From Schmidtea nova (taxonomy: Eukaryota), in assembly GCA_044892505.1 (NCBI GenBank), contig CM097883.1, forward strand, positions 170,252,001-170,316,000: a stretch of DNA of 64,000 nucleotides. Direction: 5' to 3'. The notes beneath the pieces are model-generated. The model had not been told where the DNA came from. It made no database searches and worked only from the letters and a program-made list of their open reading frames with translations. The number at the start of each line of letters is the position of its first letter. Within the stretch, counting starts at the first letter, position 1. The translations under genes and the position numbers were made by a program. Below, piece by piece: positions 3,891-36,515 of the stretch.

Positions 3891-3974
3891 AATTTTAAAA
3901 TAACAATAAGAATTTTAACATAAGAATAATTCTAAAATAATAATAATAAATTAAACATCTGTCCTAAAACTAAT

Positions 3975-5666
3975 GTGGGAAATATTACCTATTGGGTATA
4001 TATATATATATATATATATATACATCTCTCGAACTATGAACCGATAAACAAAATAATCTTACCTGCATCAACTCAGATTTTATACAATAAGAAACTGTCA
4101 ACACTTGCAAATAAACAAATTAACCTTCAAATCAAAGATTTACTTTTAAAATGCAACTGCAGTGAGCCTTTACCTAGTAATATGACTATGTTACCTAAAG
4201 ACCACAAAAGTCCTTTAAAAGGTAGACCTCTTGTATCTGCAATTGACACTCCTTCCACAACACTTTCTAAAGTTCTTTCAGAAATCCTAAAAACACTTTT
4301 GCCTTTGGTTCCTTCTCATCTTAAAAACACAACTGAATTCGTCTCAGAAATTACAAATACGTCTCTTCCATTAAATGCAGGACAACAGTACTTCTGGGGA
4401 TCTCTTGATGTTTCCAATCTTTACGGATCTATTCCTCTTCACGGAGAGAATAATATTTTCGACATCGCAGCTTCTTTCTTTGAAACTCATAAAGCCAATA
4501 CTGACCTCGCAGACTTAACTAAACAAGACTTTATAGAACTTCTAAAATTAGCAATAAATTCAGATACCGTCATAATTAAAGAAAAACCATTCAAACAAAT
4601 TCATGGATTAGCCATGGGTAATAACCTTTCTCCCATCTTAGCCATCTTCTACATAAACTTTATAGAATCTAAGATCATTTCTTTTTTTGGAGACAAAATA
4701 CTTTTCTGGAAACGATACATCGACGACATCTTCATAGTCTCCACAATCCCTTTCAATCAAATCCTATCACACGCAAATTCTACTAACACCAACATACAAT
4801 TCACTTTTGAAACACCAAACACAGAAGGTAAAATACCGTTTTTAGATACCATAGTAAGTTTCACAAAAGGCCAAGATACACTAAATGCAAACACCGAGCT
4901 ATATTCTAAAGGTTTACATAGTGGTCATATCCTCCCATGGAAAAGCCACGTTCCACTTCAACGCAAAATCGCATTACTAATAGGAGAAAGAAAAAGAGCC
5001 ATAAGAAACTGTTCAGACGCAAACAAAATACAAGAAACATTAGAAAACTTCAAAATACGATTCCTCCAAAATGGATACCCTGAAGACTTTGTAAAGAAAC
5101 ACTTCCTTAATGAACCATACCACAATAAACGCAACAATAGGAAACGCCAGAAACACAATAACAATAACAAACACACAACATATCTAAGATTACCTTTCCT
5201 AAATGACACTACAGCCAACAAAATCACCAACATTTTTAATCAAACAGATTTGCCTATCCACATCCGTCCAACGTTCATAACCTCCGCACCGTTAAAATCA
5301 CAACTCCGAAAGCCACCAATATCCAACATCTCCAAACATAAATGTCTTTGCCGTTCCACAACCCGATGCTTTTGCTTTTCCAAAAATATAGTATATAAAC
5401 TTTCTTGCCAAAAATGTGACGCTACTTACATAGGAGAAACACATAGAACTTTTCGCACCTTACTTAATGAACACACTAAAATCAAAACCAGTAATTATTA
5501 CGAACACTGGGAGAAAGTACATAAAACAACTCCATCTATAGAAGAAACAAAATGCCAGATTCTACAAGAGGGATTCAAAAATTCATTACAAAGATTAGCT
5601 TCCGAGACTTTTTTCATGAAAAAATACAAACCGTCCATCAACATTCAATTCGCACAAAAAACTTAA
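3975..5666 (+). CDS. Penelope-like element family 1: reverse transcriptase plus GIY-YIG endonuclease, 5'-truncated but open
   Basis: RT motifs RPLVS, SLDVSNLYGSIP, QIHGLAMGNNLSP, RYIDDIF, IPFLD; GIY-YIG VYKLSCQKCDATYIGETHR. The first codons run through a (TA)n tract, so the annotated start is probably not real. Confidence 0.9.
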   Translation: MGNITYWVYIYIYIYIHLSNYEPINKIILPASTQILYNKKLSTLANKQINLQIKDLLLKCNCSEPLPSNMTMLPKDHKSPLKGRPLVSAIDTPSTTLSKVLSEILKTLLPLVPSHLKNTTEFVSEITNTSLPLNAGQQYFWGSLDVSNLYGSIPLHGENNIFDIAASFFETHKANTDLADLTKQDFIELLKLAINSDTVIIKEKPFKQIHGLAMGNNLSPILAIFYINFIESKIISFFGDKILFWKRYIDDIFIVSTIPFNQILSHANSTNTNIQFTFETPNTEGKIPFLDTIVSFTKGQDTLNANTELYSKGLHSGHILPWKSHVPLQRKIALLIGERKRAIRNCSDANKIQETLENFKIRFLQNGYPEDFVKKHFLNEPYHNKRNNRKRQKHNNNNKHTTYLRLPFLNDTTANKITNIFNQTDLPIHIRPTFITSAPLKSQLRKPPISNISKHKCLCRSTTRCFCFSKNIVYKLSCQKCDATYIGETHRTFRTLLNEHTKIKTSNYYEHWEKVHKTTPSIEETKCQILQEGFKNSLQRLASETFFMKKYKPSINIQFAQKT

Positions 5667-6216: not shown

Positions 6217-6845
6217 TTAATCATATCAAGATATAAAATTAATAAAATAAACCACACAAACTAAATTAATACAATTACAAGGATGTCATCATAATTATAA
6301 CGATAAAATATATTGAATAAAGAGAAAAGAAAATAAATTTGTCACATAATAAAATTGTCAACAATTAAAATAGATTGTTGTTTGAATCACAAGGTTGAAT
6401 GGATTTATCACACAATAGAATTGTCAAACGATACAATAGATTGTTATCTGAATCACAAGGCTGTTATGGCGGAAGAGATATTGTTAGTGGATGTATCAAT
6501 ATGTATATAAAGCCTATATCTATTTGACCCTATTCTATAGTCTTCATCTAACTCAAATGTTTTTACCATTTTCCTTGTATCTAACACTGAGCAATGATGA
6601 AAATCCGAGCGCATTAGAGACCCGAGAAATCAAAGGTGGGTAATTCCTCGAAGTAATTATGGATAACATCCACCCGGGAAATCAATAATTTAATTTGTTG
6701 ATGGGCCAATTAGGCCAGAAATTTTCAATTTGATGTTGACCAAAATTTAAAAAATTACCCTCCGACAAACATATAAAAAGACAGTAGAAAAAAGGGCTGA
6801 GAGTGTGTCGAATTGAAATACTTAAAAATATTACTGCCAGTGGTC

Positions 6846-7187
6846 AGTAGGTAGACGTGTCCGGTCTGGATCCGTATGAGTTATCGCGCGTTTTTTGGCG
6901 CCATTTTTAAAGTGTGTTTTGTTTAAATGTTTGGAATTTTTATTATTATTTTTATTTTATTATTAAATTATTTTTATTTTTTTATTTAATTAATTATTTT
7001 TTTTTTTTAGTTAGTTATTTATTTTTTAAATATTATTAATTTACTTTTGCTAGTATAATTTATTATTGTTATTATAAATTTTGAAACAATTCAATGATAA
7101 ACGTTCAATGAAAGTACTACTCAAAATATTATAAGAATATATCACATGGTGAAATACGATAAATATTAAACTATTATTATTATTAAT
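6846..7187 (+). repeat. Left terminal inverted repeat segment of the Polinton-like element
   Basis: Reverse complement of 22424-22765 with about 4-5 visible differences; GC-rich tip followed by AT-rich body. Confidence 0.9.
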
Positions 7188-7313
7188 ATTACTATTATTT
7201 CTATGACATAACCACAGTTTCTAAAAACTATTACCCAAATTAAAAAACAGACTGAAACTAATTTGTACAATATATAACTAAATAAATGAAAAAACAAAGT
7301 TTTTCAACAAAAT

Positions 7314-10300
7314 TTTATTTAAATAAAACTGTTTCTTCTTCAGTTTGACCTTGGAATTGTTGATCTGGATTGATTCTGGGTTCGGTATGTTGAAATATAA
7401 CCAAGTCACCTCCCATAAAATGGCCATATGCCAAGCTTTTATTTTTCGCAACCCATTTCCTTTTATCGTCTGCGTTTGTCAGTGCAGTCTTTTCATTTTT
7501 AATAGTAAAAAGTTGGTGATTTTTACTTGTGATTCTGGTTTGAGGAACAGAAAATATTTGGTTATTATTAAAACAGTCCAGGTACGACTGATGCTTTATG
7601 TCAGTACCCGCTAATGTTGATCTTTAGCTTTATTAGTTTCCTCGTCACCTAAAAGACTATAACATTTAGGTCTAAGAAACACCCACTCCTCGTATTTACG
7701 CCCTTTATTCTCGTCTTTGAACTTGCCAATGACAGAATCAAGGTTCCTACTATATAATGGGCGATTCGGATCATAGTTAGAAGTGTCAAGTAAGTTATCT
7801 CTTATCATGGCCGGTAAAAGAATATCAAGCTTACAATTTCTAATCTCAAGAAAAAACGAATCGGTGTCACCAGCTACGATGTTGATTTCGCAGTTGAATT
7901 CGTTACGATATTTTTGTAACTCTTCATACTGCAGCTGGTACATTCTAAGTTTAGATAGATCCAGTACAGTTTGACCAATGTAGCTGGGTCTATCCAAACA
8001 CACCGATTCCTGATTCAGCAAGACGGCAACCAAATCATCGTCAATTTCGAAAGTCCTTTTAAAAGTTGGCTTAGAAGTATATGTAATCAGCCTAGAAGCC
8101 GAATTACATAATCTTAAATTTATGCGCTTTTTAAGATTCTCTACGGTTTTACCGTAGAGACTATTATTTAATAATTTATAATAATTTTTACCCAGAGCAT
8201 TACTTGATTCTGCTCTAAGTCTGGTATTGGTATCGATGTAATCCTTAAAAATACATGCTTGTTTAAATTTAATTGCCCTATGGACATGAGTTATTTTTAC
8301 TCCAAGAGAAAGAAAAAGTTTGAGAAGTCTCCAATGAAGAACATAGTTCTTCTTGGGATAATGCGTAAGGATCAACTTCTCAACCTTTGAGCCAGGTGGA
8401 CACATCTTTTCAGCGGCAACTGGCAAATCATCCAGCTTGTCGTGAATCGAATCAGGAATTTCTAAATCGACTTCTAATGTAAATCCAAATGTTAATACTT
8501 CTAAATCAGCAGATTCACAGTAATAAATTATTTTATTTAATTTTTCCCTATCAGTTACCCATTTAAATTCTTTATAAGGTAGTTTTTGGCTTAAGGCCCA
8601 CCCATATAAATTATTTATATCTATATAAAGAAGCTCAATGTCGTCGGAGGATACTACATGGTGTTTGTTAACAAATGTTAACCCACCACGGATCCCCCCT
8701 TCGAAAAAATTATACATCTCCATATCTTGAAGCAACTCGATAGGAGATTTCAAAGTCATCAAAGCTGAATTCCATGACATGCCTGGAATTCCCAAGAAAT
8801 TAAGAGGCTCAAGTCGGTTATGTGCAATGGATTTTGCCCTAAATTGCTGAAAAAAGTCGGCAAGTAAGAAAACATCCAATTTCAGGTATAACATCATATA
8901 ATCAAACAATGTTTCACAATTAAATTCATCCCATATATGTTGAGCTTTTTCATACTCGTCGATTTTAACTCCTTCCCAAATCGGTGGCAACTCGTATGTA
9001 TTTTGTAAAACCTCTAAAGAAGTTGCAAAATTATATGGGAATATGCCTTTGGAAGTAATAATAGTCCCTATAAATTCGGATGAAGTAAGAGGAAAATCTG
9101 TTAAAGTCTTTACAGCATCGTTTAAGCTACAGCTTACAAATTGGCAAGAATCGATAAATTTAATAGTCAAACTATCGACTCTTGCATATAAAGTCAAAAA
9201 CTTTTCACTTGTAGTAGGAATACAACTTATATTCCATTTATCCAATTTATTTAAACCATACTTGAGAATATGATGCAAATCATATCCGCGTAAATTATGA
9301 AATAGTACAGGCATAATGAATCTTATTTGCCGAGAAAAATTACATTTAGAGCAAGCTGCACCCAAGTATTTACCTGTATAATGGTCATGATCTTTAACCG
9401 GATTTTTCAAAGGTTTATTACATAAATAACAAATAATAGAACTACGAAATGATCTTATTTGTGCAGGAGAAAGATATTCCATTTTCTTTTTGGAATTATT
9501 TATAAAGTAAGGTAAAACTACTTTTTCTCCTATATCATTGATTTCAGTCAAAAACTCTTCTACACAGTTAAGACCATAAAAGCTTTTATACGATTTTTCG
9601 CCAGTAAGGTTATTAATAAGCAACAAGCCAGCAGAAATAGGTAAGTGACGTTGAAAATACTTATCGTCCTTCGATAAAACAGCCTCAAAATCGGCATATA
9701 CAACAAAAGGAGGGGTAACAATCTTTGACCACTCTTTAAATTCCAAGTTCTTATCTGAAGGTAAAGTGTATAAAGTTGTACCTAACTGGTTTTTTATGCA
9801 TAAAGTCTGATGTTTCTCAAAAGCTTCAGTCAATCTAAAACCATTCAAACAACGCTCGCACCACGTGCACCTTATTTGAACATCAGTAACAGAAAGAGTC
9901 TCACAATTTAAAAGTCTGTTAATGTTGGTAACTGCAATATAATGAAAAGAGTCATTTTCCTCTAACAAAATCAAATTAATTGGAGTGCCACCTAAAACCT
10001 TTGACCTATGAATAATATCTACAAATGGATGTTTCATGACTTCCTCTTCCTCATTAATATTATTTAGATCATACTCGTCATATGAAAGGACATTTATAGA
10101 CAGTCCAGGGTTTTTCGCTTCAAATTTGGGTATATTACATAATTTCATAGGAAGATCAGAAGGATCAAACACAAGGTCTGAGGGATTATAATTAGTTGCT
10201 CTATTTCTGTGTCGATGATTGCTATGTACATCATCGTATTTTAAAATAGCCAAAATGCTATATATAAAACACAATTTATCTGTATTTTTTACATTGACAG

Positions 10301-11021
10301 TGCAATGCTTTGCATTTAATGATGGTGGGGTTGAACAAGCACCTTTACCGCTCAATCTACTTATCTGTGAATATTTTGTAAGTTTAAAGCTTATTTCTTT
10401 AATTTTATTAATTAACCAATTGCTGCCATTTTCACAGACTTTAGTCATTTTTTCACTTAATAGAGCAATACCTTCATCTAAAAAGGTATCACTCATTGGT
10501 TTTGCGGAATTTGATATTATAAAAGATTGAAATTGCTTATTCTTTTCAAATTCTACATCAATACAAAATTGTACTTTTACATACCCCATTTTGGAAATAA
10601 CTGAATTAAATTTATTTAATAAAGGTGAAGGAATAATTAATTTATTTAAATTTAAAGAATCCACATCCATTTTAACAATGGCATGCGATTTTTTCAAATT
10701 ATATTTAACCAAAGGTTCAACAGAACCGCCATATTGAACAACATGCAAATTAGGAATAACTAAAACATCGTCATTTGATGAATGGACATCTTCATCATCG
10801 GATATTACAATTATTTTAGATGGTTTAGGACAAACAGTAACATTTCGTCGTTTACATTTATTAATTAATGCGAAAAGACTTTTCTTAGTGCATGAGAATT
10901 GATTTAAATGGAGATAATGTTGGAAATAAAAATCAATGTAATTTATATGTTGAGCGCTCTTACATGTGGGACACAAATAGAAGGTGACTTGGTTATTTAT
11001 AATACGATAGTATCGCTCCAT
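7314..11021 (-). pseudogene. pPolB copy A, frameshifted near the C-terminus (1136 aa instead of 1235)
   Basis: Mirror of 13871-17578 (coordinates sum to 24892). AAAG-AT-CAACATT replaces AAAG-GGG-CAACATT, giving NKAKDQH* and removing ~100 C-terminal residues. Has IVAGDTDS where copy B has IEAGDTDS. Confidence 0.85.
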
Positions 11022-11401
11022 TAATTTGTGGCAATCGTTATGATTTGACGACTTACAATAATTCGCATAAAATTTACCTTAATATGAAATATCTTTAAAT
11101 TTATCAAAAAATCATTAAAATAAATTAATAAAGATATGAATTATTAGAAAATAAATATGAAATTTAAGATAAATATGATTTAAATATAATAATTACTAAA
11201 ATAATTTAAATTTAATATAAAAATTATTACAAAATAATATTAAAGGAATTTGTTTAAATTAACTGTTTACGTAAAGTAAAGATTATTTAAATTATTACAA
11301 AATATTACCAAAAATATATATTTACAAATATTTTACTATATTTATTTACTAAATTAATTAAAATAATTATCAAAATATAATTAAAATTAATCAATACTTA
11401 C

Positions 11402-11678
11402 ATTGAACATTCAATACCACATCAGGTATAACTCCATTATTCATAATATTCTCCTTATTAACAATCTCAGCTTGTACGGTAGTTTGTTCAGTCATATTTA
11501 CATCACCTAAAGTAAAAATTAAATAATATACTACGTTAATAATTAAGTACCATTTTCTTCCGCATTTTCTAACATCGATTTCCCAATTGAATTATTGATA
11601 ATACCTAAATTAATATTAAATAATAATAAATTATAAAATAAATTTACCATTCTCTTTTCCACTTGGGTTTTCATTCAT
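11402..11678 (-). CDS. Predicted 5' leader exons 1-3 of pPolB copy A
   Basis: Mirror image of 13214-13490. Confidence 0.55.
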
Positions 11679-13270
11679 AAAACTTGTTATAATGTTCATT
11701 TTTAATGTTTATTATTTGTAAAAGTGAATAATGAATGAAAAAGTATTGTTTATATATCAAAGTTATTACACACACATAACTTTTGACCAATAAAAATCGA
11801 GTAAGGGGTAGGAAATTTATTCTTATCAGCCAACAAGATTCGAGTAAGAGGCAGTACACGTGTTTTTGTAATAAAATACTGGATTTTTTCGACTATTTAG
11901 CATAGATTTATCGAATATTTATTGTAATCATGTGTAGATATAATTTAATTTCTATCATATACTAATTAAAATTATAAAAGTTTTGTGTGTGTTATTGACA
12001 ATTCTAATGTATTTTATCAAAATTAATTAAAATATTTTTTATAACTGACGTAAGTATTGAATTGTAATATAATTTAGACGTAATTTACTGAAATATTTAG
12101 TCTAATATATTTTAATCATATGACATGCATGCAATTCATTGAAATATTTTATAACTTTGATGTGTATTATAATTTGTTGAAATAACTTTTCTAGTTTTTT
12201 AAAATACTGCAACGTAATATATGATTAGTCATAATTCTCTATCTGATGATAATAATACCTTTACTGCCTCTTACTCGAATCTTGTTGGCTGATAAGAATA
12301 AATTTCCTACCCCTTACTCGATTTTTATTGGTCAAAGGTTATGTGTGTGTAATAACTTTGATATATAAACAATACTTTTTCATTCATTATTAAACAATAA
12401 TAAATTATAAAATAAATTTACCATTCTCTTTTCCACTTGGGTTTTCATTCATAAAACTTGTTATAATGTTCATTTTTAATGTTTATTATTTGTAAAAGTG
12501 AATAATGAATGAAAAAGTATTGTTTATATATCAAAGTTATTACACACACATAACCTTTGACCAATAAAAATCGAGTAAGGGGTAGGAAATTTATTCTTAT
12601 CAGCCAACAAGATTCGAGTAAGAGGCAGTAAAGGTATTATTATCATCAGATAGAGAATTATGACTAATCATATATTACGTTGCAGTATTTTAAAAAACTA
12701 GAAAAGTTATTTCAACAAATTATAATACACATCAAAGTTATAAAATATTTCAATGAATTGCATGCATGTCATATGATTAAAATATATTAGACTAAATATT
12801 TCAGTAAATTACGTCTAAATTATATTACAATTCAATACTTACGTCAGTTATAAAAAATATTTTAATTAATTTTGATAAAATACATTAGAATTGTCAATAA
12901 CACACACAAAACTTTTATAATTTTAATTAGTATATGATAGAAATTAAATTATATCTACACATGATTACAATAAATATTCGATAAATCTATGCTAAATAGT
13001 CGAAAAAATCCAGTATTTTATTACAAAAACACGTGTACTGCCTCTTACTCGAATCTTGTTGGCTGATAAGAATAAATTTCCTACCCCTTACTCGATTTTT
13101 ATTGGTCAAAAGTTATGTGTGTGTAATAACTTTGATATATAAACAATACTTTTTCATTCATTATTCACTTTTACAAATAATAAACATTAAAAATGAACAT
13201 TATAACAAGTTTTATGAATGAAAACCCAAGTGGAAAAGAGAATGGTAAATTTATTTTATAATTTATTATT
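11622..13270. promoter_or_regulatory. Palindrome centre with four copies of a ~130-140-bp putative pPolB promoter module
   Basis: Module with two TCGAGTAAG(G/A)GG(T/C)AG motifs and a TATATAAA-like box at ~11729-11866, 12262-12391 (inverted), 12501-12630 and ~13026-13163 (inverted). Symmetry axis at 12446. The 109-bp asymmetric loop 12392-12500 is largely a copy of 11622-11728. Confidence 0.6.
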
Positions 13271-13490
13271 ATTTAATATTAATTTAGGTATTATCAATAA
13301 TTCAATTGGGAAATCGATGTTAGAAAATGCGGAAGAAAATGGTACTTAATTATTAACGTAGTATATTATTTAATTTTTACTTTAGGTGATGTAAATATGA
13401 CTGAACAAACTACCGTACAAGCTGAGATTGTTAATAAGGAGAATATTATGAATAATGGAGTTATACCTGATGTGGTATTGAATGTTCAAT
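13214..13490 (+). CDS. Predicted 5' leader exons 1-3 of pPolB copy B (13214-13244, 13288-13341, 13386-13490)
   Basis: GT-AG introns of 43, 44 and 324 nt, all phase 1. Splicing to the AG at 13813-13814 gives an open frame into ATG 13871, adding 82 aa (MNENPSGKENG...VQCKFYANYC...). Confidence 0.6.
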
Positions 13491-13870
13491 GTAAGTATTG
13501 ATTAATTTTAATTATATTTTGATAATTATTTTAATTAATTTAGTAAATAAATATAGTAAAATATTTGTAAATATATATTTTTGGTAATATTTTGTAATAA
13601 TTTAAATAATCTTTACTTTACGTAAACAGTTAATTTAAACAAATTCCTTTAATATTATTTTGTAATAATTTTTATATTAAATTTAAATTATTTTAGTAAT
13701 TATTATATTTAAATCATATTTATCTTAAATTTCATATTTATTTTCTAATAATTCATATCTTTATTAATTTATTTTAATGATTTTTTGATAAATTTAAAGA
13801 TATTTCATATTAAGGTAAATTTTATGCGAATTATTGTAAGTCGTCAAATCATAACGATTGCCACAAATTA

Positions 13871-16800
13871 ATGGAGCGATACTATCGTATTATAAATAAC
13901 CAAGTCACCTTCTATTTGTGTCCCACATGTAAGAGCGCTCAACATATAAATTACATTGATTTTTATTTCCAACATTATCTCCATTTAAATCAATTCTCAT
14001 GCACTAAGAAAAGTCTTTTCGCATTAATTAATAAATGTAAACGACGAAATGTTACTGTTTGTCCTAAACCATCTAAAATAATTGTAATATCCGATGATGA
14101 AGATGTCCATTCATCAAATGACGATGTTTTAGTTATTCCTAATTTGCATGTTGTTCAATATGGCGGTTCTGTTGAACCTTTGGTTAAATATAATTTGAAA
14201 AAATCGCATGCCATTGTTAAAATGGATGTGGATTCTTTAAATTTAAATAAATTAATTATTCCTTCACCTTTATTAAATAAATTTAATTCAGTTATTTCCA
14301 AAATGGGGTATGTAAAAGTACAATTTTGTATTGATGTAGAATTTGAAAAGAATAAGCAATTTCAATCTTTTATAATATCAAATTCCGCAAAACCAATGAG
14401 TGATACCTTTTTAGATGAAGGTATTGCTCTATTAAGTGAAAAAATGACTAAAGTCTGTGAAAATGGCAGCAATTGGTTAATTAATAAAATTAAAGAAATA
14501 AGCTTTAAACTTACAAAATATTCACAGATAAGTAGATTGAGCGGTAAAGGTGCTTGTTCAACCCCACCATCATTAAATGCAAAGCATTGCACTGTCAATG
14601 TAAAAAATACAGATAAATTGTGTTTTATATATAGCATTTTGGCTATTTTAAAATACGATGATGTACATAGCAATCATCGACACAGAAATAGAGCAACTAA
14701 TTATAATCCCTCAGACCTTGTGTTTGATCCTTCTGATCTTCCTATGAAATTATGTAATATACCCAAATTTGAAGCGAAAAACCCTGGACTGTCTATAAAT
14801 GTCCTTTCATATGACGAGTATGATCTAAATAATATTAATGAGGAAGAGGAAGTCATGAAACATCCATTTGTAGATATTATTCATAGGTCAAAGGTTTTAG
14901 GTGGCACTCCAATTAATTTGATTTTGTTAGAGGAAAATGACTCTTTTCATTATATTGCAGTTACCAACATTAACAGACTTTTAAATTGTGAGACTCTTTC
15001 TGTTACTGATGTTCAAATAAGGTGCACGTGGTGCGAGCGTTGTTTGAATGGTTTTAGATTGACTGAAGCTTTTGAGAAACATCAGACTTTATGCATAAAA
15101 AACCAGTTAGGTACAACTTTATACACTTTACCTTCAGATAAGAACTTGGAATTTAAAGAGTGGTCAAAGATTGTTACCCCTCCTTTTGTTGTATATGCCG
15201 ATTTTGAGGCTGTTTTATCGAAGGACGATAAGTATTTTCAACGTCACTTACCTATTTCTGCTGGCTTGTTGCTTATTAATAACCTTACTGGCGAAAAATC
15301 GTATAAAAGCTTTTATGGTCTTAACTGTGTAGAAGAGTTTTTGACTGAAATCAATGATATAGGAGAAAAAGTAGTTTTACCTTACTTTATAAATAATTCC
15401 AAAAAGAAAATGGAATATCTTTCTCCTGCACAAATAAGATCATTTCGTAGTTCTATTATTTGTTATTTATGTAATAAACCTTTGAAAAATCCGGTTAAAG
15501 ATCATGACCATTATACAGGTAAATACTTGGGTGCAGCTTGCTCTAAATGTAATTTTTCTCGGCAAATAAGATTCATTATGCCTGTACTATTTCATAATTT
15601 ACGCGGATATGATTTGCATCATATTCTCAAGTATGGTTTAAATAAATTGGATAAATGGAATATAAGTTGTATTCCTACTACAAGTGAAAAGTTTTTGACT
15701 TTATATGCAAGAGTCGATAGTTTGACTATTAAATTTATCGATTCTTGCCAATTTGTAAGCTGTAGCTTAAACGATGCTGTAAAGACTTTAACAGATTTTC
15801 CTCTTACTTCATCCGAATTTATAGGGACTATTATTACTTCCAAAGGCATATTCCCATATAATTTTGCAACTTCTTTAGAGGTTTTACAAAATACATACGA
15901 GTTGCCACCGATTTGGGAAGGAGTTAAAATCGACGAGTATGAAAAAGCTCAACATATATGGGATGAATTTAATTGTGAAACATTGTTTGATTATATGATG
16001 TTATACCTGAAATTGGATGTTTTCTTACTTGCCGACTTTTTTCAGCAATTTAGGGCAAAATCCATTGCACATAACCGACTTGAGCCTCTTAATTTCTTGG
16101 GAATTCCAGGCATGTCATGGAATTCAGCTTTGATGACTTTGAAATCTCCTATCGAGTTGCTTCAAGATATGGAGATGTATAATTTTTTCGAAGGGGGGAT
16201 CCGTGGTGGGTTAACATTTGTTAACAAACACCATGTAGTATCCTCCGACGACATTGAGCTTCTTTATATAGATATAAATAATTTATATGGGTGGGCCTTA
16301 AGCCAAAAACTACCTTATAAAGAATTTAAATGGGTAACTGATAGGGAAAAATTAAATAAAATAATTTATTACTGTGAATCTGCTGATTTAGAAGTATTAA
16401 CATTTGGATTTACATTAGAAGTCGATTTAGAAATTCCTGATTCGATTCACGACAAGCTGGATGATTTGCCAGTTGCCGCTGAAAAGATGTGTCCACCTGG
16501 CTCAAAGGTTGAGAAGTTGATCCTTACGCATTATCCCAAGAAGAACTATGTTCTTCATTGGAGACTTCTCAAACTTTTTCTTTCTCTTGGAGTAAAAATA
16601 ACTCATGTCCATAGGGCAATTAAATTTAAACAAGCATGTATTTTTAAGGATTACATCGATACCAATACCAGACTTAGAGCAGAATCAAGTAATGCTCTGG
16701 GTAAAAATTATTATAAATTATTAAATAATAGTCTCTACGGTAAAACCGTAGAGAATCTTAAAAAGCGCATAAATTTAAGATTATGTAATTCGGCTTCTAG

Positions 16801-17578
16801 GCTGATTACATATACTTCTAAGCCAACTTTTAAAAGGACTTTCGAAATTGACGATGATTTGGTTGCCGTCTTGCTGAATCAGGAATCGGTGTGTTTGGAT
16901 AGACCCAGCTACATTGGTCAAACTGTACTGGATCTATCTAAACTTAGAATGTACCAGCTGCAGTATGAAGAGTTACAAAAATATCGTAACGAATTCAACT
17001 GCGAAATCAACATCGAAGCTGGTGACACCGATTCGTTTTTTCTTGAGATTAGAAATTGTAAGCTTGATATTCTTTTACCGGCCATGATAAGAGATAACTT
17101 ACTTGACACTTCTAATTATGATCCGAATCGCCCGTTATATAGTAGGAACCTTGATTCTGTCATTGGCAAGTTCAAAGACGAGAATAAAGGGCGTAAATAC
17201 GAGGAGTGGGTGTTTCTTAGACCTAAATGTTATAGTCTTTTAGGTGACGAGGAAACTAATAAAGCTAAAGGGGCAACATTAGCGGGTACTGACATAAAGC
17301 ATCAGTCGTACCTGGACTGTTTTAATAATAACCAAATATTTTCTGTTCCTCAAACCAGAATCACAAGTAAAAATCACCAACTTTTTACTATTAAAAATGA
17401 AAAGACTGCACTGACAAACGCAGACGATAAAAGGAAATGGGTTGCGAAAAATAAAAGCTTGGCATATGGCCATTTTATGGGAGGTGACTTGGTTAAATTT
17501 CAACATACCGAACCCAGAATCAATCCAGATCAACAATTCCAAGGTCAAACTGAAGAAGAAACAGTTTTATTTAAATAA
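13871..17578 (+). CDS. Protein-primed DNA polymerase B (Polinton/adintovirus type), copy B, full length
   Basis: Exo I YADFE, Exo II HNLRGYD, Exo III YLKLDV; Pol motifs YIDINNLYG, KLLNNSLYGK, AGDTDS; GSNW and NxDxxCF N-terminal motifs; endonuclease VII-like CxxC...DHDHxTGxxxGxACxxCN. Confidence 0.93.
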   Translation: MERYYRIINNQVTFYLCPTCKSAQHINYIDFYFQHYLHLNQFSCTKKSLFALINKCKRRNVTVCPKPSKIIVISDDEDVHSSNDDVLVIPNLHVVQYGGSVEPLVKYNLKKSHAIVKMDVDSLNLNKLIIPSPLLNKFNSVISKMGYVKVQFCIDVEFEKNKQFQSFIISNSAKPMSDTFLDEGIALLSEKMTKVCENGSNWLINKIKEISFKLTKYSQISRLSGKGACSTPPSLNAKHCTVNVKNTDKLCFIYSILAILKYDDVHSNHRHRNRATNYNPSDLVFDPSDLPMKLCNIPKFEAKNPGLSINVLSYDEYDLNNINEEEEVMKHPFVDIIHRSKVLGGTPINLILLEENDSFHYIAVTNINRLLNCETLSVTDVQIRCTWCERCLNGFRLTEAFEKHQTLCIKNQLGTTLYTLPSDKNLEFKEWSKIVTPPFVVYADFEAVLSKDDKYFQRHLPISAGLLLINNLTGEKSYKSFYGLNCVEEFLTEINDIGEKVVLPYFINNSKKKMEYLSPAQIRSFRSSIICYLCNKPLKNPVKDHDHYTGKYLGAACSKCNFSRQIRFIMPVLFHNLRGYDLHHILKYGLNKLDKWNISCIPTTSEKFLTLYARVDSLTIKFIDSCQFVSCSLNDAVKTLTDFPLTSSEFIGTIITSKGIFPYNFATSLEVLQNTYELPPIWEGVKIDEYEKAQHIWDEFNCETLFDYMMLYLKLDVFLLADFFQQFRAKSIAHNRLEPLNFLGIPGMSWNSALMTLKSPIELLQDMEMYNFFEGGIRGGLTFVNKHHVVSSDDIELLYIDINNLYGWALSQKLPYKEFKWVTDREKLNKIIYYCESADLEVLTFGFTLEVDLEIPDSIHDKLDDLPVAAEKMCPPGSKVEKLILTHYPKKNYVLHWRLLKLFLSLGVKITHVHRAIKFKQACIFKDYIDTNTRLRAESSNALGKNYYKLLNNSLYGKTVENLKKRINLRLCNSASRLITYTSKPTFKRTFEIDDDLVAVLLNQESVCLDRPSYIGQTVLDLSKLRMYQLQYEELQKYRNEFNCEINIEAGDTDSFFLEIRNCKLDILLPAMIRDNLLDTSNYDPNRPLYSRNLDSVIGKFKDENKGRKYEEWVFLRPKCYSLLGDEETNKAKGATLAGTDIKHQSYLDCFNNNQIFSVPQTRITSKNHQLFTIKNEKTALTNADDKRKWVAKNKSLAYGHFMGGDLVKFQHTEPRINPDQQFQGQTEEETVLFK

Positions 17579-17781
17579 AATTTTGTTGAAAAACTTTGTT
17601 TTTTCATTTATTTAGTTATATATTGTACAGATTAGTTTCAGTCTGTTTTTTAATTTGGGTAATAGTTTTTAGAAACTGTGGTTATGTCATAGAAATAATA
17701 GTAATATTAATAATAATACATAACACAACCAGCATGGCACTAATATAATTAACAACAAACAAGAATCCAAATATATATTTT

Positions 17782-17822
17782 GCACAATATATTTCGAGAA
17801 CTTAATTCTCTTCATCAGGTGC
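17782..17822 (-). ncRNA. Minimal type I hammerhead ribozyme, array copy 1
   Basis: GCAC-CUGAUGA-A-GAGAA(UUAAG)UUCUC-GAAA-UAUA-UU-GUGC. Confidence 0.85.
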
Positions 17823-17938
17823 TACCCAATCTTACATCGAAATATAAATCACATAAATCGATTTATTCGAACAAATTAGTATTAATTTTTAAAATAAAAT
17901 ATATATTTTAAATTTTATTATAGTCAAAAAATTTATAT

Positions 17939-18778
17939 CTATTTAAAAGTTTTTAATTTAAATAAATTAATCTTAGAAATATAATATTCTTTTATTTTTA
18001 TACAAAAAAATATTTTTTTTAAGAATATATTATAAATATTTTCATATTTATAAACAACAGAATGATTGAAAACGAAATCCATAATCCCCAATTGAAAATG
18101 CTCTAAAACTCGAGTACAGAAAAGACGGTCAGTCTTGTCCAAAGTATGTGGCATTACGCCCATGACATTTGAAAAATTAAACGAGTATAGAACACAAATC
18201 AAAAGAAGAAAATAAACACCATCAACAGCCACATCAGTTAATTTACTTAAACCGCAAAAAATGAGGCAAACACACGGACTCAAAACTCTCACACTCACAT
18301 ATTCACAAACAACGATATGACTGAAAACAACGCTAAATCCCATTAATTGACTTCGCTCTGAAACTCGAATACAGAGAAGACGGGCAGTCTTTTCCAATGT
18401 ATGTGGCATTTCACCCATGACGTTTGAAAATATAAACGAGAACAGAGCAAAGAACAATACAGAAAACTTAGAATCGCCAACAATCACATCAATTAATTCA
18501 TAAACAATAGAATAAGAGAAGGAATTAGCACAAGTGTAAACCTCATCATTAAATCGAAATACTAATTTGACAATATAAAACTCTATACATTTAGAATTAT
18601 AAAAATTAAATACAAACATTTTCCTAGACAAACTTTCACAGAATACCGGAACAACTGACGGATTATTATCTTTCTTTAATACATAACACAACCAGCATGG
18701 CACTAATATAATTAACAACAAACAAGAATCCAAATATATATTTTGCACAATATATTTCGAGAACTTAATTCTCTTCAT
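17939..18778 (-). CDS. 279-aa ORF of the 963-bp unit (Penelope-derived, hydrophobic and Cys-rich, function unknown)
   Basis: The ATG is the AUG of CUGAUGA. Partly in the ancestral GIY-YIG frame (TARLLCIRVSE, TDRLFCTRVLEH) and partly shifted. Confidence 0.4.
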   Translation of the reverse strand: MKRIKFSKYIVQNIYLDSCLLLIILVPCWLCYVLKKDNNPSVVPVFCESLSRKMFVFNFYNSKCIEFYIVKLVFRFNDEVYTCANSFSYSIVYELIDVIVGDSKFSVLFFALFSFIFSNVMGEMPHTLEKTARLLCIRVSERSQLMGFSVVFSHIVVCEYVSVRVLSPCVCLIFCGLSKLTDVAVDGVYFLLLICVLYSFNFSNVMGVMPHTLDKTDRLFCTRVLEHFQLGIMDFVFNHSVVYKYENIYNIFLKKIFFCIKIKEYYISKINLFKLKTFK

Positions 18779-18785
18779 CAGGTGC
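18745..18785 (-). ncRNA. Minimal type I hammerhead ribozyme, array copy 2
   Basis: Identical to copy 1, offset 963 bp. Confidence 0.85.
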
Positions 18786-18901
18786 TACCCAATCTTACAT
18801 CGAAATATAAATCACATAAATCGATTTATTCGAACAAATTAGTATTAATTTTTAAAATAAAATATATATTTTAAATTTTATTATAGTCAAAAAATTTATA
18901 T

Positions 18902-19741
18902 CTATTTAAAAGTTTTTAATTTAAATAAATTAATCTTAGAAATATAATATTCTTTTATTTTTATACAAAAAAATATTTTTTTTAAGAATATATTATAAAT
19001 ATTTTCATATTTATAAACAACAGAATGATTGAAAACGAAATCCATAATCCCCAATTGAAAATGCTCTAAAACTCGAGTACAGAAAAGACGGTCAGTCTTG
19101 TCCAAAGTATGTGGCATTACGCCCATGACATTTGAAAAATTAAACGAGTATAGAACACAAATCAAAAGAAGAAAATAAACACCATCAACAGCCACATCAG
19201 TTAATTTACTTAAACCGCAAAAAATGAGGCAAACACACGGACTCAAAACTCTCACACTCACATATTCACAAACAACGATATGACTGAAAACAACGCTAAA
19301 TCCCATTAATTGACTTCGCTCTGAAACTCGAATACAGAGAAGACGGGCAGTCTTTTCCAATGTATGTGGCATTTCACCCATGACGTTTGAAAATATAAAC
19401 GAGAACAGAGCAAAGAACAATACAGAAAACTTAGAATCGCCAACAATCACATCAATTAATTCATAAACAATAGAATAAGAGAAGGAATTAGCACAAGTGT
19501 AAACCTCATCATTAAATCGAAATACTAATTTGACAATATAAAACTCTATACATTTAGAATTATAAAAATTAAATACAAACATTTTCCTAGACAAACTTTC
19601 ACAGAATACCGGAACAACTGACGGATTATTATCTTTCTTTAATACATAACACAACCAGCATGGCACTAATATAATTAACAACAAACAAGAATCCAAATAT
19701 ATATTTTGCACAATATATTTCGAGAACTTAATTCTCTTCAT
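18902..19741 (-). CDS. 279-aa ORF of the 963-bp unit, identical second copy
   Basis: ORF track; identical translation. Confidence 0.4.
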   Translation of the reverse strand: MKRIKFSKYIVQNIYLDSCLLLIILVPCWLCYVLKKDNNPSVVPVFCESLSRKMFVFNFYNSKCIEFYIVKLVFRFNDEVYTCANSFSYSIVYELIDVIVGDSKFSVLFFALFSFIFSNVMGEMPHTLEKTARLLCIRVSERSQLMGFSVVFSHIVVCEYVSVRVLSPCVCLIFCGLSKLTDVAVDGVYFLLLICVLYSFNFSNVMGVMPHTLDKTDRLFCTRVLEHFQLGIMDFVFNHSVVYKYENIYNIFLKKIFFCIKIKEYYISKINLFKLKTFK

Positions 19742-19748
19742 CAGGTGC
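19708..19748 (-). ncRNA. Minimal type I hammerhead ribozyme, array copy 3
   Basis: Identical to copy 1, offset 1926 bp. Confidence 0.85.
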
Positions 19749-21393
19749 TACCCAATCTTACATCGAAATATAAATCACATAAATCGATTTATTCGAACAA
19801 ATTAGTATTAATTTTTAAAATAAAATATATATTTTAAATTTTATTATAGTCAAAAAATTTATATCTATTTAAAAGTTTTTAATTTAAATAAATTAATCTT
19901 AGAAATATAATATTCTTTTATTTTTATACAAAAAAATATTTTTTTTAAGAATATATTATAAATATTTTCATATTTATAAACAACAGAATGATTGAAAACG
20001 AAATCCATAATCCCCAATTGAAAATGCTCTAAAACTCGAGTACAGAAAAGACGGTCAGTCTTGTCCAAAGTATGTGGCATTACGCCCATGACATTTGAAA
20101 AGTTAAACGAGTATAGAACACAAATCAAAAGAAGAAAATAAACACCATCAACAGCCACATCAGTTAATTTACTTAAACCGCAAAAAATGAGGCAAACACA
20201 CGGACTCAAAACTCTCACACTCACATATTCACAAACAACGATATGACTGAAAACAACGCTAAATCCCATTAATTGACTTCGCTCTGAAACTCGAATACAG
20301 AGAAGACGGGCAGTCTTTTCCAATGTATGTGGCATTTCACCCATGACGTTTGAAAATATAAACGAGAACAGAGCAAAGAACAATACAGAAAACTTAGAAT
20401 CGCCAACAATCACATCAATTAATTCATAAACAATAGAATAAGAGAAGGAATTAGCACAAGTGTAAACCTCATCATTAAATTTTGTTGTTAAAATTTGTTG
20501 TTAATTATATTAGTGCCATGCTGGTTGTGTTATGTATTAAAGAAAGATAATAATCCGTCAGTTGTTCCGGTATTCTGTGAAAGTTTGTCTAGGAAAATGT
20601 TTGTATTTAATTTTTATAATTCTAAATGTATAGAGTTTTATATTGTCAAATTAGTATTTCGATTTAATGATGAGGTTTACACTTGTGCTAATTCCTTCTC
20701 TTATTCTATTGTTTATGAATTAATTGATGTGATTGTTGGCGATTCTAAGTTTTCTGTATTGTTCTTTGCTCTGTTCTCGTTTATATTTTCAAACGTCATG
20801 GGTGAAATGCCACATACATTGGAAAAGACTGCCCGTCTTCTCTGTATTCGAGTTTCAGAGCGAAGTCAATTAATGGGATTTAGCGTTGTTTTCAGTCATA
20901 TCGTTGTTTGTGAATATGTGAGTGTGAGAGTTTTGAGTCCGTGTGTTTGCCTCATTTTTTGCGGTTTAAGTAAATTAACTGATGTGGCTGTTGATGGTGT
21001 TTATTTTCTTCTTTTGATTTGTGTTCTATACTCGTTTAATTTTTCAAATGTCATGGGCGTAATGCCACATACTTTGGACAAGACTGACCGTCTTTTCTGT
21101 ACTCGAGTTTTAGAGCATTTTCAATTGGGGATTATGGATTTCGTTTTCAATCATTCTGTTGTTTATAAATATGAAAATATTTATAATATATTCTTAAAAA
21201 AAATATTTTTTTGTATAAAAATAAAAGAATATTATATTTCTAAGATTAATTTATTTAAATTAAAAACTTTTAAATAGATATAAATTTTTTGACTATAATA
21301 AAATTTAAAATATATATTTTATTTTAAAAATTAATACTAATTTGTTCGAATAAATCGATTTATGTGATTTATATTTCGATGTAAGATTGGGTA

Positions 21394-21434
21394 GCACCTG
21401 ATGAAGAGAATTAAGTTCTCGAAATATATTGTGC
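21394..21434 (+). ncRNA. Minimal type I hammerhead ribozyme, array copy 4
   Basis: Same motif on the plus strand; predicted cleavage between 21430 and 21431. Confidence 0.85.
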
Positions 21435-22180
21435 AAAATATATATTTGGATTCTTGTTTGTTGTTAATTATATTAGTGCCATGCTGGTTGTGTTATGTAT
21501 TAAAGAAAGATAATAATCCGTCAGTTGTTCCGGTATTCTGTGAAAGTTTGTCTAGGAAAATGTTTGTATTTAATTTTTATAATTCTAAATGTATAGAGTT
21601 TTATATTGTCAAATTAGTATTTCGATTTAATGATGAGGTTTACACTTGTGCTAATTCCTTCTCTTATTCTATTGTTTATGAATTAATTGATGTGATTGTT
21701 GGCGATTCTAAGTTTTCTGTATTGTTCTTTGCTCTGTTCTCGTTTATATTTTCAAACGTCATGGGTGAAATGCCACATACATTGGAAAAGACTGCCCGTC
21801 TTCTCTGTATTCGAGTTTCAGAGCGAAGTCAATTAATGGGATTTAGCGTTGTTTTCAGTCATATCGTTGTTTGTGAATATGTGAGTGTGAGAGTTTTGAG
21901 TCCGTGTGTTTGCCTCATTTTTTGCGGTTTAAGTAAATTAACTGATGTGGCTGTTGATGGTGTTTATTTTCTTCTTTTGATTTGTGTTCTATACTCGTTT
22001 AATTTTTCAAATGTCATGGGCGTAATGCCACATACTTTGGACAAGACTGACCGTCTTTTCTGTACTCGAGTTTTAGAGCATTTTCAATTGGGGATTATGG
22101 ATTTCGTTTTCAATCATTCTGTTGTTTATAAATATGAAAATATTTATAATATATTCTTAAAAAAAATATTTTTTGTATAA
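21401..22180 (+). CDS. 963-bp unit ORF, 259-aa variant
   Basis: One T lost from a homopolymer near 22170 truncates the C-terminus; this unit is 962 bp. Confidence 0.35.
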   Translation: MKRIKFSKYIVQNIYLDSCLLLIILVPCWLCYVLKKDNNPSVVPVFCESLSRKMFVFNFYNSKCIEFYIVKLVFRFNDEVYTCANSFSYSIVYELIDVIVGDSKFSVLFFALFSFIFSNVMGEMPHTLEKTARLLCIRVSERSQLMGFSVVFSHIVVCEYVSVRVLSPCVCLIFCGLSKLTDVAVDGVYFLLLICVLYSFNFSNVMGVMPHTLDKTDRLFCTRVLEHFQLGIMDFVFNHSVVYKYENIYNIFLKKIFFV

Positions 22181-22355
22181 AAATAAAAGAATATTATATT
22201 TCTAAGATTAATTTATTTAAATTAAAAACTTTTAAATAGATATAAATTTTTTGACTATAATAAAATTTAAAATATATATTTTATTTTAAAAATTAATACT
22301 AATTTGTTCGAATAAATCGATTTATGTGATTTATATTTCGATGTAAGATTGGGTA

Positions 22356-22396
22356 ACACCTGATGAAGAGAATTAAGTTCTCGAAATATATTGTGC
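22356..22396 (+). ncRNA. Minimal type I hammerhead ribozyme, array copy 5 (stem I G>A variant)
   Basis: ACAC instead of GCAC weakens stem I; the core is intact. Confidence 0.75.
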
Positions 22397-22423
22397 AAAA
22401 TATATATTTGGATTCTTGTTTGT

Positions 22424-22765
22424 TATTAATAATAATAATAGTTTAATATTTATCGTATTTTACCATGTGATATATTCTTATAATATTTTGAGTAGTACTT
22501 TCATTGAACGTTTATCATTGAATTGTTTCAAAATTTATAATAACAATAATAAATTATACTAGCAAAAGTAAATTAATAATATTTAAAAAATAAATAACTA
22601 ACTAAAAAAAAAATAATTAATTAAATAAAAAAATAAAAATAATTTAATAATAAAATAAAAATAATAATAAAAAATTCCAAACATTTAAACAAAACACACT
22701 TTAAAAATGGCGCCAACAAACGCGCGATAACTCATACGGATCCAGACCGGACACGTCCACCTACT
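22424..22765 (-). repeat. Right terminal inverted repeat segment of the Polinton-like element
   Basis: Reverse complement of 6846-7187. Confidence 0.9.
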
Positions 22766-23110
22766 GTGGTCGAAAAGAATAAAAGTGAAAATATTAAATT
22801 TCGGAGTTCTGAATAGATAATGAAGGAAGTGAGAAAAGATTTGAATAAAACTTATTCAAATAAAACGTACCAGAAAAGGCTATTAGCCCTTGGGTTATAT
22901 GCCTTAACGTAAATCAAATCAAATAACGAGAGAAAGTGAAAATTGTAAATTGTATTGATTAAACATGGTTATCTCAAAGACAAATTGTGTTGTGGTGATA
23001 ATCAAATAAAATATTCTGTGTAGGGTTTTATTGATTTTCGATTTATAAAAGGACACGAGGAGTTAGATATTTGAACCGATCTTAAAACAAATTAAAACAA
23101 CTAAACATTT

Positions 23111-31232: not shown

Positions 31233-32052
31233 GATAAAACGTAACGCCCTTTCAATGATTTTATTATCTAGCATAGCCTTTTCATTGGCCAATGTTTTGA
31301 ACATTACAATGGTAGATTGAGGATCAATCATAAAGTTATTGTAAATTGCCAGACCAAACAATCTACCGATCACAGTAAACTGGGTTAAATCGTCATCAAA
31401 TATCATTTTGTTAAACCAGCAGAGTCTTGATTCAGGATACATTTCAAAGAGACCATAATCAAAGAGACCATAACGCTGCGACTGGCTAATGGTATCATCT
31501 AGCAAATTATCTCTTCGTACAGTAGTATGAGAACTGCTTTGTGCTACGAAGCATGGTAAATCTTCTGACATTAAGCATTGAGCATCAATTTTGAACATTA
31601 CAAGAGGAGAATTCCATTTTTCGAAACCATAATTACAAAAATTCCAAATTGATTCCAACATAATCGAAACTCCACATTAATCAAAATTCTAAATAGCCAA
31701 CTTCCTAAATCCAAACCGAAACTAAAATTTCACTAATTCCACATCAAAAATCCAAAACTGAATTGATTGGTTTAAACAAATCTAAAATTCAACAATTACT
31801 CCAAATTCACTATTCTAAAAAATCAATTAAATCAAATTAACAAATTATTCTACATAAATCCAAAATTACCAATTAAACCTCATGCGCACACAGACGCTGT
31901 CAGAAAAATACAAATGATCTAAACTAAGCGCACACAGACGCGAATAAGGAAAAGCACAGCTCTGCGCACACAGACGCGAGCAGGAAATAAAAAGCCGACA
32001 CACGCAGCAACCAAACAGCCAAAGTTTGTTCAGGCAAACTTTGGCTGAAACA
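31233..32052 (-). repeat. 3' LTR (end hidden in the N gap)
   Basis: Copy of 35696-36515 with two visible substitutions; preceded by the PPT. Confidence 0.9.
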
Positions 32053-32095: not shown

Positions 32096-33211
32096 TCATC
32101 TCTGGGGGCCAACCTTCAACTTCCTAACTTTATTCTTCCACTTCGGCTTATATTTGTTTTTGTCTTTGAACATTTCTTCGATCATTAATTCTCTTGTACT
32201 ATCCTGGATACACCCCCTCCAACATATGGACATTTTTATTTCCAAATTTACCTTTACCAATTTATCGCTAATGCTGTTTATATTTTCCATTTCCACTGCT
32301 AATGTTTCTACACTTTCCGCACAATTGTTTATCTTTTCTTCTAACCTTTTAATTTCACTTTTATATTCCAATTCGCCCGTTTTTATTTTACTTTCAAGAT
32401 TTTCTATCTTTGAATGAAGTCGTGTTACTAAATCCGACTTATCAACAAGAACTTCATTATCAACATTTGAACCATGATCAACTTTGTCAAATGATTCCAT
32501 TTCATTGCCACTAATTGCAACTTTACCTTCTATCGGAAGATAAGCTGACTGCTCACTACCTGTTTTCTCTGCAATTATAACTGGGCAATTTATAAGTTCA
32601 ATCGTTTCTACTTTTTCCCATTTTATACTGACATTTTTTATAACTTTTCCATTATCTTCTAGATTTGTTTCACTTTTAATAACTTTTCCTTCGTCACTTT
32701 TATCAACATTGGAATTTTTGACTATTCCTTGCCTAATATCTCCACCATTAAAAGAGTTCTCTCCAATAAGTTCCCCAAAATTACAATTTTCTTCAATACC
32801 GTTAATATTTTCCACAACTTTCTCATCGACCATGCAGTTTTCTTTAATATCGTTAATATTTTCTACAATTTTCTCATCGACAATGCAGTTTTCTTCAAAA
32901 TTATATTCACTTACTGCTTGCCCATTTTTCACTGATATTGTAGATTCAATTTCCGTCATTACTCCTTGCACTAAATCGTTTGAAGAAGTATTTATTCCAT
33001 CCTCGCCTACAATATCAACCGATTCAGAGTTATCAACCATTTCACCAGACACCCCGCTATTCACTGCGCTATTCTTACCTCGACCTGAATTCAATTCACC
33101 ATCACCAGTTCGAACCTCACCAAGAACTACTTCCTGAGCTTTAGGTGCAAAACTTTCGATACATTTCTTTTCACACTGTTCTTCTCGATAAGTCACCATT
33201 GACCTGTTCAC
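32096..33211 (-). CDS. Acidic, low-complexity, coiled-coil ORF2 of the BEL element, 371 aa, unknown function
   Basis: Imperfect ~17-aa repeats (EENCIVDEKIVENINDI), heptad region, basic tail. Bounded by a 10-bp direct repeat GACCTGTTCA (32089-32098 and 33201-33210). Confidence 0.5.
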   Translation of the reverse strand: MNRSMVTYREEQCEKKCIESFAPKAQEVVLGEVRTGDGELNSGRGKNSAVNSGVSGEMVDNSESVDIVGEDGINTSSNDLVQGVMTEIESTISVKNGQAVSEYNFEENCIVDEKIVENINDIKENCMVDEKVVENINGIEENCNFGELIGENSFNGGDIRQGIVKNSNVDKSDEGKVIKSETNLEDNGKVIKNVSIKWEKVETIELINCPVIIAEKTGSEQSAYLPIEGKVAISGNEMESFDKVDHGSNVDNEVLVDKSDLVTRLHSKIENLESKIKTGELEYKSEIKRLEEKINNCAESVETLAVEMENINSISDKLVKVNLEIKMSICWRGCIQDSTRELMIEEMFKDKNKYKPKWKNKVRKLKVGPQR

Positions 33212-33241
33212 ATTTGGTTTCCCACCTCTTAGTGCCGTTAC

Positions 33242-36515
<3,274 letters not shown>

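Follow-up and report, generated by a model that had tools for sequence, protein, structure and literature searches.

A 64,000-nucleotide stretch of the Schmidtea nova genome (NCBI GenBank assembly GCA_044892505.1, contig CM097883.1, positions 170,252,001 to 170,316,000 of the forward strand), referred to here as the window, contains a palindromic element with Polinton-type ends at positions 6846-22765. The element is 15,920 bp long, or ∼11.2 kb without a retrozyme-like insert in its right arm. It starts with AGTAGG at 6846 and ends with CCTACT at 22765, and these AGT-type termini sit in inverted repeats, as in Polintons. Directly outside each terminus lies GTGGTC (6840-6845 and 22766-22771), a perfect 6-bp target-site duplication; in Polintons such duplications measure 5-8 bp, most often 6. 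The left arm (6846-12391, + strand) is matched by an inner part of the right arm (12501-17722, − strand), the mirror of 7172-12391, and by the outer 340 bp of that arm (22424-22765, − strand), which bears the Polinton-type terminus; between the arms is an unpaired axis loop of 109 bp (12392-12500, + strand). Alignment of 7172-12391 with 17722-12501 gave 99.83% identity over 5.2 kb, with 7 substitutions and 2 gaps, and alignment of the outer parts (6846-7188 with 22765-22424) gave 98.3% identity. All 10 arm-to-arm substitutions fall within 6853-7876, with none in 7877-12391. An earlier note on this DNA had described the ends, the duplication, the palindrome with a polymerase gene on each arm and an insert of 4.7 kb in the right arm, and all of these were confirmed.

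The polymerase is a pPolB. On the right arm its main exon is an open frame at 13815-17578 (+ strand; 13814-17578 and 1254 aa when counted from stop to stop), recognized by motifs and by a structure model, while the left copy (7315-11077, − strand) is broken by a frameshift near 7620. The main exon contains a vOTU-like Cys270/His379 pair, exonuclease motifs, an endonuclease-VII/HNH insertion and polymerase motifs A-C; among 74 aligned sequences the exonuclease and polymerase motifs, the catalytic residues and the Cys/His pair were invariant or nearly so. Pfam returned only a weak endonuclease VII match, and a search of PDB by sequence gave no match. The predicted structure (with a score of 87.8 in the predicted local distance difference test) has a phi29 polymerase-like fold, with a best PDB match at E 1.9e-20, and is nearest to phi29 polymerase and to the PolB of bidnaviruses and adintoviruses. 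The fold search identified no separate terminal-protein domain; its presence is presumed from PMC11161782, which describes Polinton pPolB as a single chain that combines terminal protein, vOTU protease and polymerase. Because that paper places three functions in one chain, the single pPolB gene is probably the whole replication module. Upstream of the main exon, a first coding exon of 31 codons plus one base, ending in a GTAAGT donor, is predicted at 13397-13490 (+ strand), with a mirror copy at 11402-11495 (− strand), and is followed by a predicted intron (13491-13814, + strand). The predicted start exon is in phase with an acceptor at 13813-13814, and the acceptor has the same phase in six other polymerase types of this genome.

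The earlier note had recognized no integrase, ATPase, protease or capsid gene. Consistent with this, a tblastn search with ten query proteins from Polintons of the same genome (integrase, ATPase, capsid, putative protease and TATA-binding protein) found no match in the element at E 0.01, and the same search found no integrase in three standard copies of the family described below. A palindrome of this kind could be an artefact in which the assembly folded back on itself. Four short-read contig sets from one study contain this stretch, with no RNA data set listed among its carriers, and among the pieces listed none bridges the axis junction at 12391. However, a folded read would mirror the flanks as well, whereas the flanks of this element differ and carry direct 6-bp duplications; the arms also contain real substitutions, some of them common to other copies, and an independent insertion in one arm only. 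We consider an artefact barely credible.

The element is one of many. In the genome assembly of 1.25 Gb, the best 88 polymerase matches include 17 minus/plus pairs spaced 9-17.5 kb apart, and a motif from the centre of the palindromes has at least 396 exact matches, a lower bound since the pattern was exact and left out a second type of centre. All 18 complete copies with both ends located have their own 6-bp duplication, with lengths of 11.9-14.5 kb; in an earlier first sample, a duplication was found at 9 of 11 end pairs. When the first 17 centres of the centre-motif list were taken as an unselected run, 8 were verified as complete with a duplication, 3 more were two-armed and 6 were one-armed. 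There are also palindromes with ends of this kind that have no genes or almost none (L003 and L014). This family consists of mobile, modular, polymerase-only palindromes and not of full Polintons; we refer to its members as satellites. Outside this genome, a single-query search of viral contigs and a one-protein query of metagenomes found no relative, and an alignment query of metagenomes returned 54 loci; none of the 16 that reach 4 kb showed a palindrome, and 2 were full Polintons with the same gene order. Some copies deviate from the usual form. Neither L003 nor the copy running from L008:184 to L010:9743 has a direct duplication; the flanks of the latter are mirrored over the 12 bases checked, and a complete satellite is nested inside it. 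In L002:349-1649 (− strand), frames of 165-207 aa replace the second polymerase, and two that were tested had no Pfam match.

These copies bear on whether ordinary Polintons simply folded back after integration, repeatedly and locally, an alternative that the earlier note had raised. In favour of this, one full Polinton of another family is a palindrome cut in the capsid region (L069-L071), with polymerase and major capsid gene on each arm, arms 99.96% alike and a spacer of ∼130 bp; moreover, the axis of the window copy is unique, and an in-place origin of that axis is a possible alternative route. Against this, hundreds of copies with their own duplications have one backbone not found in helpers and one fixed axis junction, and at two loci the polymerase region is almost the same whereas the flanks are not. 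Since distinct duplications surround a common structure, local rearrangement is contradicted for the family, and we regard it as very improbable.

A standard copy consists of an outer end, an outward-pointing pPolB, ∼1 kb of upstream DNA, an array of 144-bp units, a fixed joint, an axis cassette and then the mirror image. About 2.5 kb per arm, including the predicted first pPolB exon and the array, is a satellite-specific backbone. The cassette is of two types: alpha, of ∼350-390 bp, is composed of the long and the short end of one full Polinton family (∼90 bp at 88-91%), and beta, of ∼580 bp as measured in polymerase-A copies, is composed of the ends of another (450 bp at ∼90%), which has 512 free ends and 15.5-kb elements with duplications. 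The snap-back structure proposed in the earlier note was upheld, but its view that one element end had been duplicated was incomplete, given the satellite-specific backbone and a standard axis made of captured helper ends. At the joint of array and cassette, AGTAG came next in 110 of 114 occurrences in the examined loci, with overlapping stretches counted twice; at the alpha short ends the first base of the joint came next in 390 of 396, and 5 of the 6 exceptions are point variants of the junction. Compared by eye, the cassette showed no clear match to the outer ends of its own copy. Free-standing alpha mini-elements were considered as the source of the axis, and exact patterns found none; one free beta-type mini-element of 220 bp with a duplication was found (L116, n = 1). 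The cassette may serve as a fold-back seed, a decoy or a tag for packaging or integration, all three being candidate roles.

The backbone array varies from ∼3 to 10 copies of the unit, and at L016:1008-2493 it has 10 CACGTG motifs in 1.4 kb, compared with 4 in the whole window. It is a candidate enhancer for both outward-facing polymerase genes, judging from its position and motifs. Diverged relatives of the array (75-83%; L055:1008-1480 and L047:6357-6960) adjoin AGTAG termini of other types at the same offset, so the joint of array and terminus is old. From copy to copy the first 22 bases past the end vary blockwise, and inner and outer termini show similar variants; these blocks may be specificity sites exchanged between ends.

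The window copy departs from this standard. Its centre (11727-13165) has the order B, inverted D, B', loop, B, D, B', with neither the array nor the helper-end cassette; the cassette is also missing from one other sampled copy (L084). The axis loop is a direct copy of backbone segment 11618-11726, joined via a 4-bp microhomology, and the mirror junctions at 11856/11857 and 13035/13036 are an exact mirror pair unique to this copy in the whole assembly. By comparison with the other copies, the axis is a rearranged form of the standard centre of the family. The order of its parts fits best with loss of the central portion and, after that, a template switch at the microhomology, and the unique mirrored deletion junction would be simplest if older than one round of fold-back copying.

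Full Polintons with a 99% identical polymerase are present in the same genome and are candidate helpers. Of the first 20 of 53 unpaired polymerase matches, 10 belong to full Polintons, 8 to the satellite backbone and 2 to neither. The full Polintons around those 10 encode ATPase, integrase and both capsid proteins. Duplications of their own were found for four such helpers, which are 14-15.3 kb long, and 2 of the four have a satellite-type end at the polymerase side, which we read as a sign of exchange. Helpers are abundant, with at least 102 identical capsid copies. Capsid-bearing Polintons from an ATPase family search were rejected as the parent of polymerase A, the polymerase common to satellites and these helpers, as their polymerases were just 27-29% identical in one family and 63-75% in another; the parent is a third full Polinton family. 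The helpers' own first exon was sought and not identified. The earlier note had proposed a mobile, polymerase-only palindromic derivative with helpers, traceable through independent palindromic insertions with different duplications and through autonomous partners. Both kinds of evidence were obtained, in the 18 of 18 complete copies and, for polymerase A, in full Polintons that carry this polymerase and whose ends are related. Two further properties of the Polintons of this genome were seen. The helpers encode a TATA-binding-protein-like gene (PF00352, E 7e-17; L022:1860-2378 and homologues, with metagenome relatives L192 and L193), and one Polinton family has an internal mirrored terminus ∼170 bp inside its end (L023:5262-5440 and L027:4503-4680), a ready-made fold-back site.

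A second polymerase, B, is 57% identical to A, has its own, different outer ends and is found on 8 of the 17 unselected centres. The homology between polymerase-A and polymerase-B copies ends within the predicted intron, at ∼13616 of the window. The best 86 matches of polymerase B comprise 36 pairs and 14 singles; all 14 singles are on the satellite backbone, and the 10 kb upstream of them contain no helper genes. All four combinations of polymerase and cassette were seen (A-alpha, A-beta, B-alpha and B-beta), as were hybrids whose two arms bear different polymerases, one A and one B (L172 and L155/156). These junctions and combinations show that polymerase and axis cassette have both been exchanged on one backbone. 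The pN/pS ratio, which compares non-synonymous with synonymous variation, was 0.17 in palindromic polymerase-A copies (n = 20), 0.16 in helpers (n = 4) and 0.30 in polymerase-B copies (n = 9), and variants common to several polymerase-A copies were synonymous in 109 cases and non-synonymous in 46. By these measures of sequence variation the satellite polymerase is under purifying selection.

We also compared the arms within and between copies. Within 10 copies the arms differed at 0-4 positions per 3 kb (an eleventh copy, with 1.6 kb aligned, was left out), while different copies differed at 11-122 positions per 3 kb, except for one young pair with 0-1. Over whole arms, 15 of 20 copies had 0-15 substitutions and the other 5 had blocks of 27-117 differences. 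In six polymerase pairs an identical shortened or interrupted frame was found on both arms.

Taken together, these results make it probable that the window element belongs to a genome-wide family of self-replicating, fold-back Polinton satellites that borrow an integrase. The satellite would exist for replication as free linear DNA and would be copied through protein priming and fold-back. pPolB would prime at an AGTAG end and displace one strand, and the displaced strand would fold onto itself to give a hairpin of 6-7 kb whose origin is double-stranded. Synthesis across the hairpin loop would restore the palindrome, and because the palindrome is regenerated in this way, the arms would become identical in each round. 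Protein-primed strand displacement, the panhandle model of adenovirus and the hairpins of linear plasmids are the basis of this scheme. Together the two inner helper ends form a short inverted repeat, the most likely seed of the fold-back. A helper integrase would then insert the regenerated palindrome; such integration is likely, and dependence on a helper follows from the missing integrase together with the 6-bp duplications. Template switching among co-replicating satellites and helpers would give rise to polymerase swaps at the intron, hybrid arms and cassette swaps at the inner AGTAG. In the window copy, a central deletion plus a further template switch would have removed array and cassette, and the retrozyme-like insert would later have struck one of its arms.

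Several observations weigh against this interpretation. Six of the 17 sampled centres are one-armed only, and the blocks in 5 of 20 copies fit hybrids but mean that homogenizing is incomplete; arm identity could also be due in part to gene conversion of integrated copies. A monomer of one arm plus cassette with its own duplication was absent from the 17 free long ends, and the founding step was not caught. No full Polinton with polymerase B was present among its best 86 matches, and one may exist below them. Since helper and satellite copies of polymerase A interleave in a tree, the selection on polymerase A could come from helpers via recombination. Finally, the free linear and hairpin DNA, the transcript and the protein are all predictions from the genome.

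If the satellites were passive non-autonomous elements, helpers would supply both polymerase and integrase, pPolB would be a passenger renewed through recombination, and gene conversion in the chromosome would keep the arms alike. The exchange of polymerase A with helpers agrees with this, as do copies with both polymerases broken and the palindromes L003 and L014; because such copies exist, a polymerase gene in cis is not required for every insertion. On the other hand, polymerase B is largely open and constrained with no full Polinton among its best 86 matches, each of 24 polymerase-B acceptors has kept an in-phase start exon 129-130 bases upstream, and one-arm insertions, hybrids and difference blocks remain unconverted in chromosomes. 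A passive element is unlikely on this evidence.

More doubtful still is that the satellites are antagonists, interfering or tolerated by the host, with suppression of full Polintons as their main effect; the captured ends would titrate the proteins of these Polintons, and helper genes would receive insertions. Helper genes contain or adjoin 3 of the 17 unselected copies, which is a hint, another copy lies within the polymerase of a distant Polinton, and both cassettes are helper ends. However, helpers are still abundant and young, as seen from the identical capsid copies and from the free ends of the second family, and antagonism would supplement replication by fold-back with a borrowed integrase, not replace it.

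The insert in the right arm (17714-22437) is confined to that arm and is itself an inverted array of 963-bp units. A first array of 2.9 tandem units (17714-20480, − strand) has hammerhead-like cores at 17818, 18781 and 19744, and an inverted array of 2 units (20494-22437, + strand) has cores at 21398 and 22360; the two arrays meet in a short join that looks templated (20481-20493). The core CTGATGA...GAAA is present in all 5 units. Rfam called no hammerhead in the insert, folding of the monomer recovered stem II only, and the label 'minimal hammerhead' is a prediction from the core motif. The unit belongs to a dispersed family with 583 candidates in the genome, those scored being 99-100% identical, and all 6 other insertions examined are inverted arrays at AT-rich sites. 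Open frames of 261-281 aa in the insert lie on a T-rich strand, one that was tested had no Pfam match, and we took them as spurious. Non-LTR (long terminal repeat) retrozymes and non-autonomous Penelope-like units are roughly 300 bp (PMC7229834; bioRxiv 10.64898/2026.07.22.740005). The insert resembles retrozymes in its low-GC tandem units, its putative type I hammerhead-like core in each unit and its dispersed young copies, but differs in its longer, 963-bp unit. It is best read as an unrelated, retrozyme-like Penelope satellite that struck one arm after integration. The idea in the earlier note that it could act as stuffer was not borne out, as it is a young genome-wide family and complete copies are 11.9-14.5 kb long without it.

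Elsewhere in the window, Penelope-like reverse-transcriptase frames lie at 3936-5666 (+ strand) and 61262-62515 (+ strand), the second one broken, and further hammerhead-like cores at 1959 (− strand), 61174 (− strand) and 62625 (+ strand). A 965-aa frame at 32096-36139 (− strand) joins pieces of HECT, HSP70, ubiquitin and the retro-gag-like DUF1759, and is bracketed by 820-bp direct repeats that are 99.8% identical (31233-32052 and 35696-36515); it is likely a retroelement with captured fragments of host genes.

It is possible, and we put it forward tentatively, that the satellites are a nuclear, plasmid-like lineage of interchangeable parts, in which a backbone providing promoter and start exon takes any Polinton polymerase via the intron, and the cassette is an address tag that chooses the packaging or integrating Polinton. 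If so, polymerase B would have outlived its parent virus, persisting only on the satellite and moving between helpers. Apart from this idea, the family shows that surveys that require polymerase plus integrase (PMC10748475 and PMC11414722) miss a large mobile class. It also shows that long perfect palindromes can spread in an animal genome. The replication and movement of Polintons have been modelled and hardly observed, and here hundreds of dated insertions would record rounds of copying in their arms. For strand-displacement and panhandle replication, for the ends accepted by integrase and for recombination among co-replicating Polintons, the family would thus serve as a natural read-out. 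The model predicts specific molecules, namely a duplex of 12-14.5 kb and a hairpin of 6-7 kb with blocked 5′ ends.

Protein-primed linear plasmids have palindromic or hairpin derivatives, namely F1/F2 of yeast pGKL1 and those of Neurospora kalilo. As in the satellites, the polymerase-bearing end is duplicated in these, and a duplex palindrome and a half-length hairpin are expected; they are, however, extrachromosomal laboratory or strain forms, whereas the satellites are nuclear, integrating and long-lived, with hundreds of copies and several helpers. Copy-back or snap-back defective viral genomes likewise have one end duplicated in inverted form and depend on a helper. Unlike them, the satellite has a polymerase gene and a backbone of its own, is passed on as part of the chromosome and swaps modules, and interference is hypothetical here. 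A literature search found no account of whole-element palindromic or polymerase-only Polintons; subscription papers, Repbase entries and supplements were outside the search and could describe such elements. Exchange of pPolB has been reported in PMC10748475, the available text of which does not mention palindromes; there the exchange is between full Polintons, whereas here it is onto a gene-less backbone. In PMC11414722 a polymerase and an end without integrase at 10 loci were treated as remnants, and the palindromes in the available part of bioRxiv 10.64898/2026.07.28.741278 are short and terminal only. The satellites share with Polintons/Mavericks (PMC10748475, PMC8097293, PMC6431247, PMC11161782) the AGT-type ends, 6-bp duplications, a pPolB with vOTU-like and HNH-type parts and a size near the lower range. 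They differ in having no integrase, ATPase, protease or capsid gene, in being one inverted repeat over the whole element with two polymerases, in their inner cassette of helper ends and in the exchange of polymerase at a predicted intron. Transpovirons and other satellites of DNA viruses (PMC11161782) are also linear and have kept a replication protein with the structural module gone, but transpovirons have a pPolB-helicase fusion, are parasites of giant viruses, and are neither palindromic nor integrated in the manner of Polintons.

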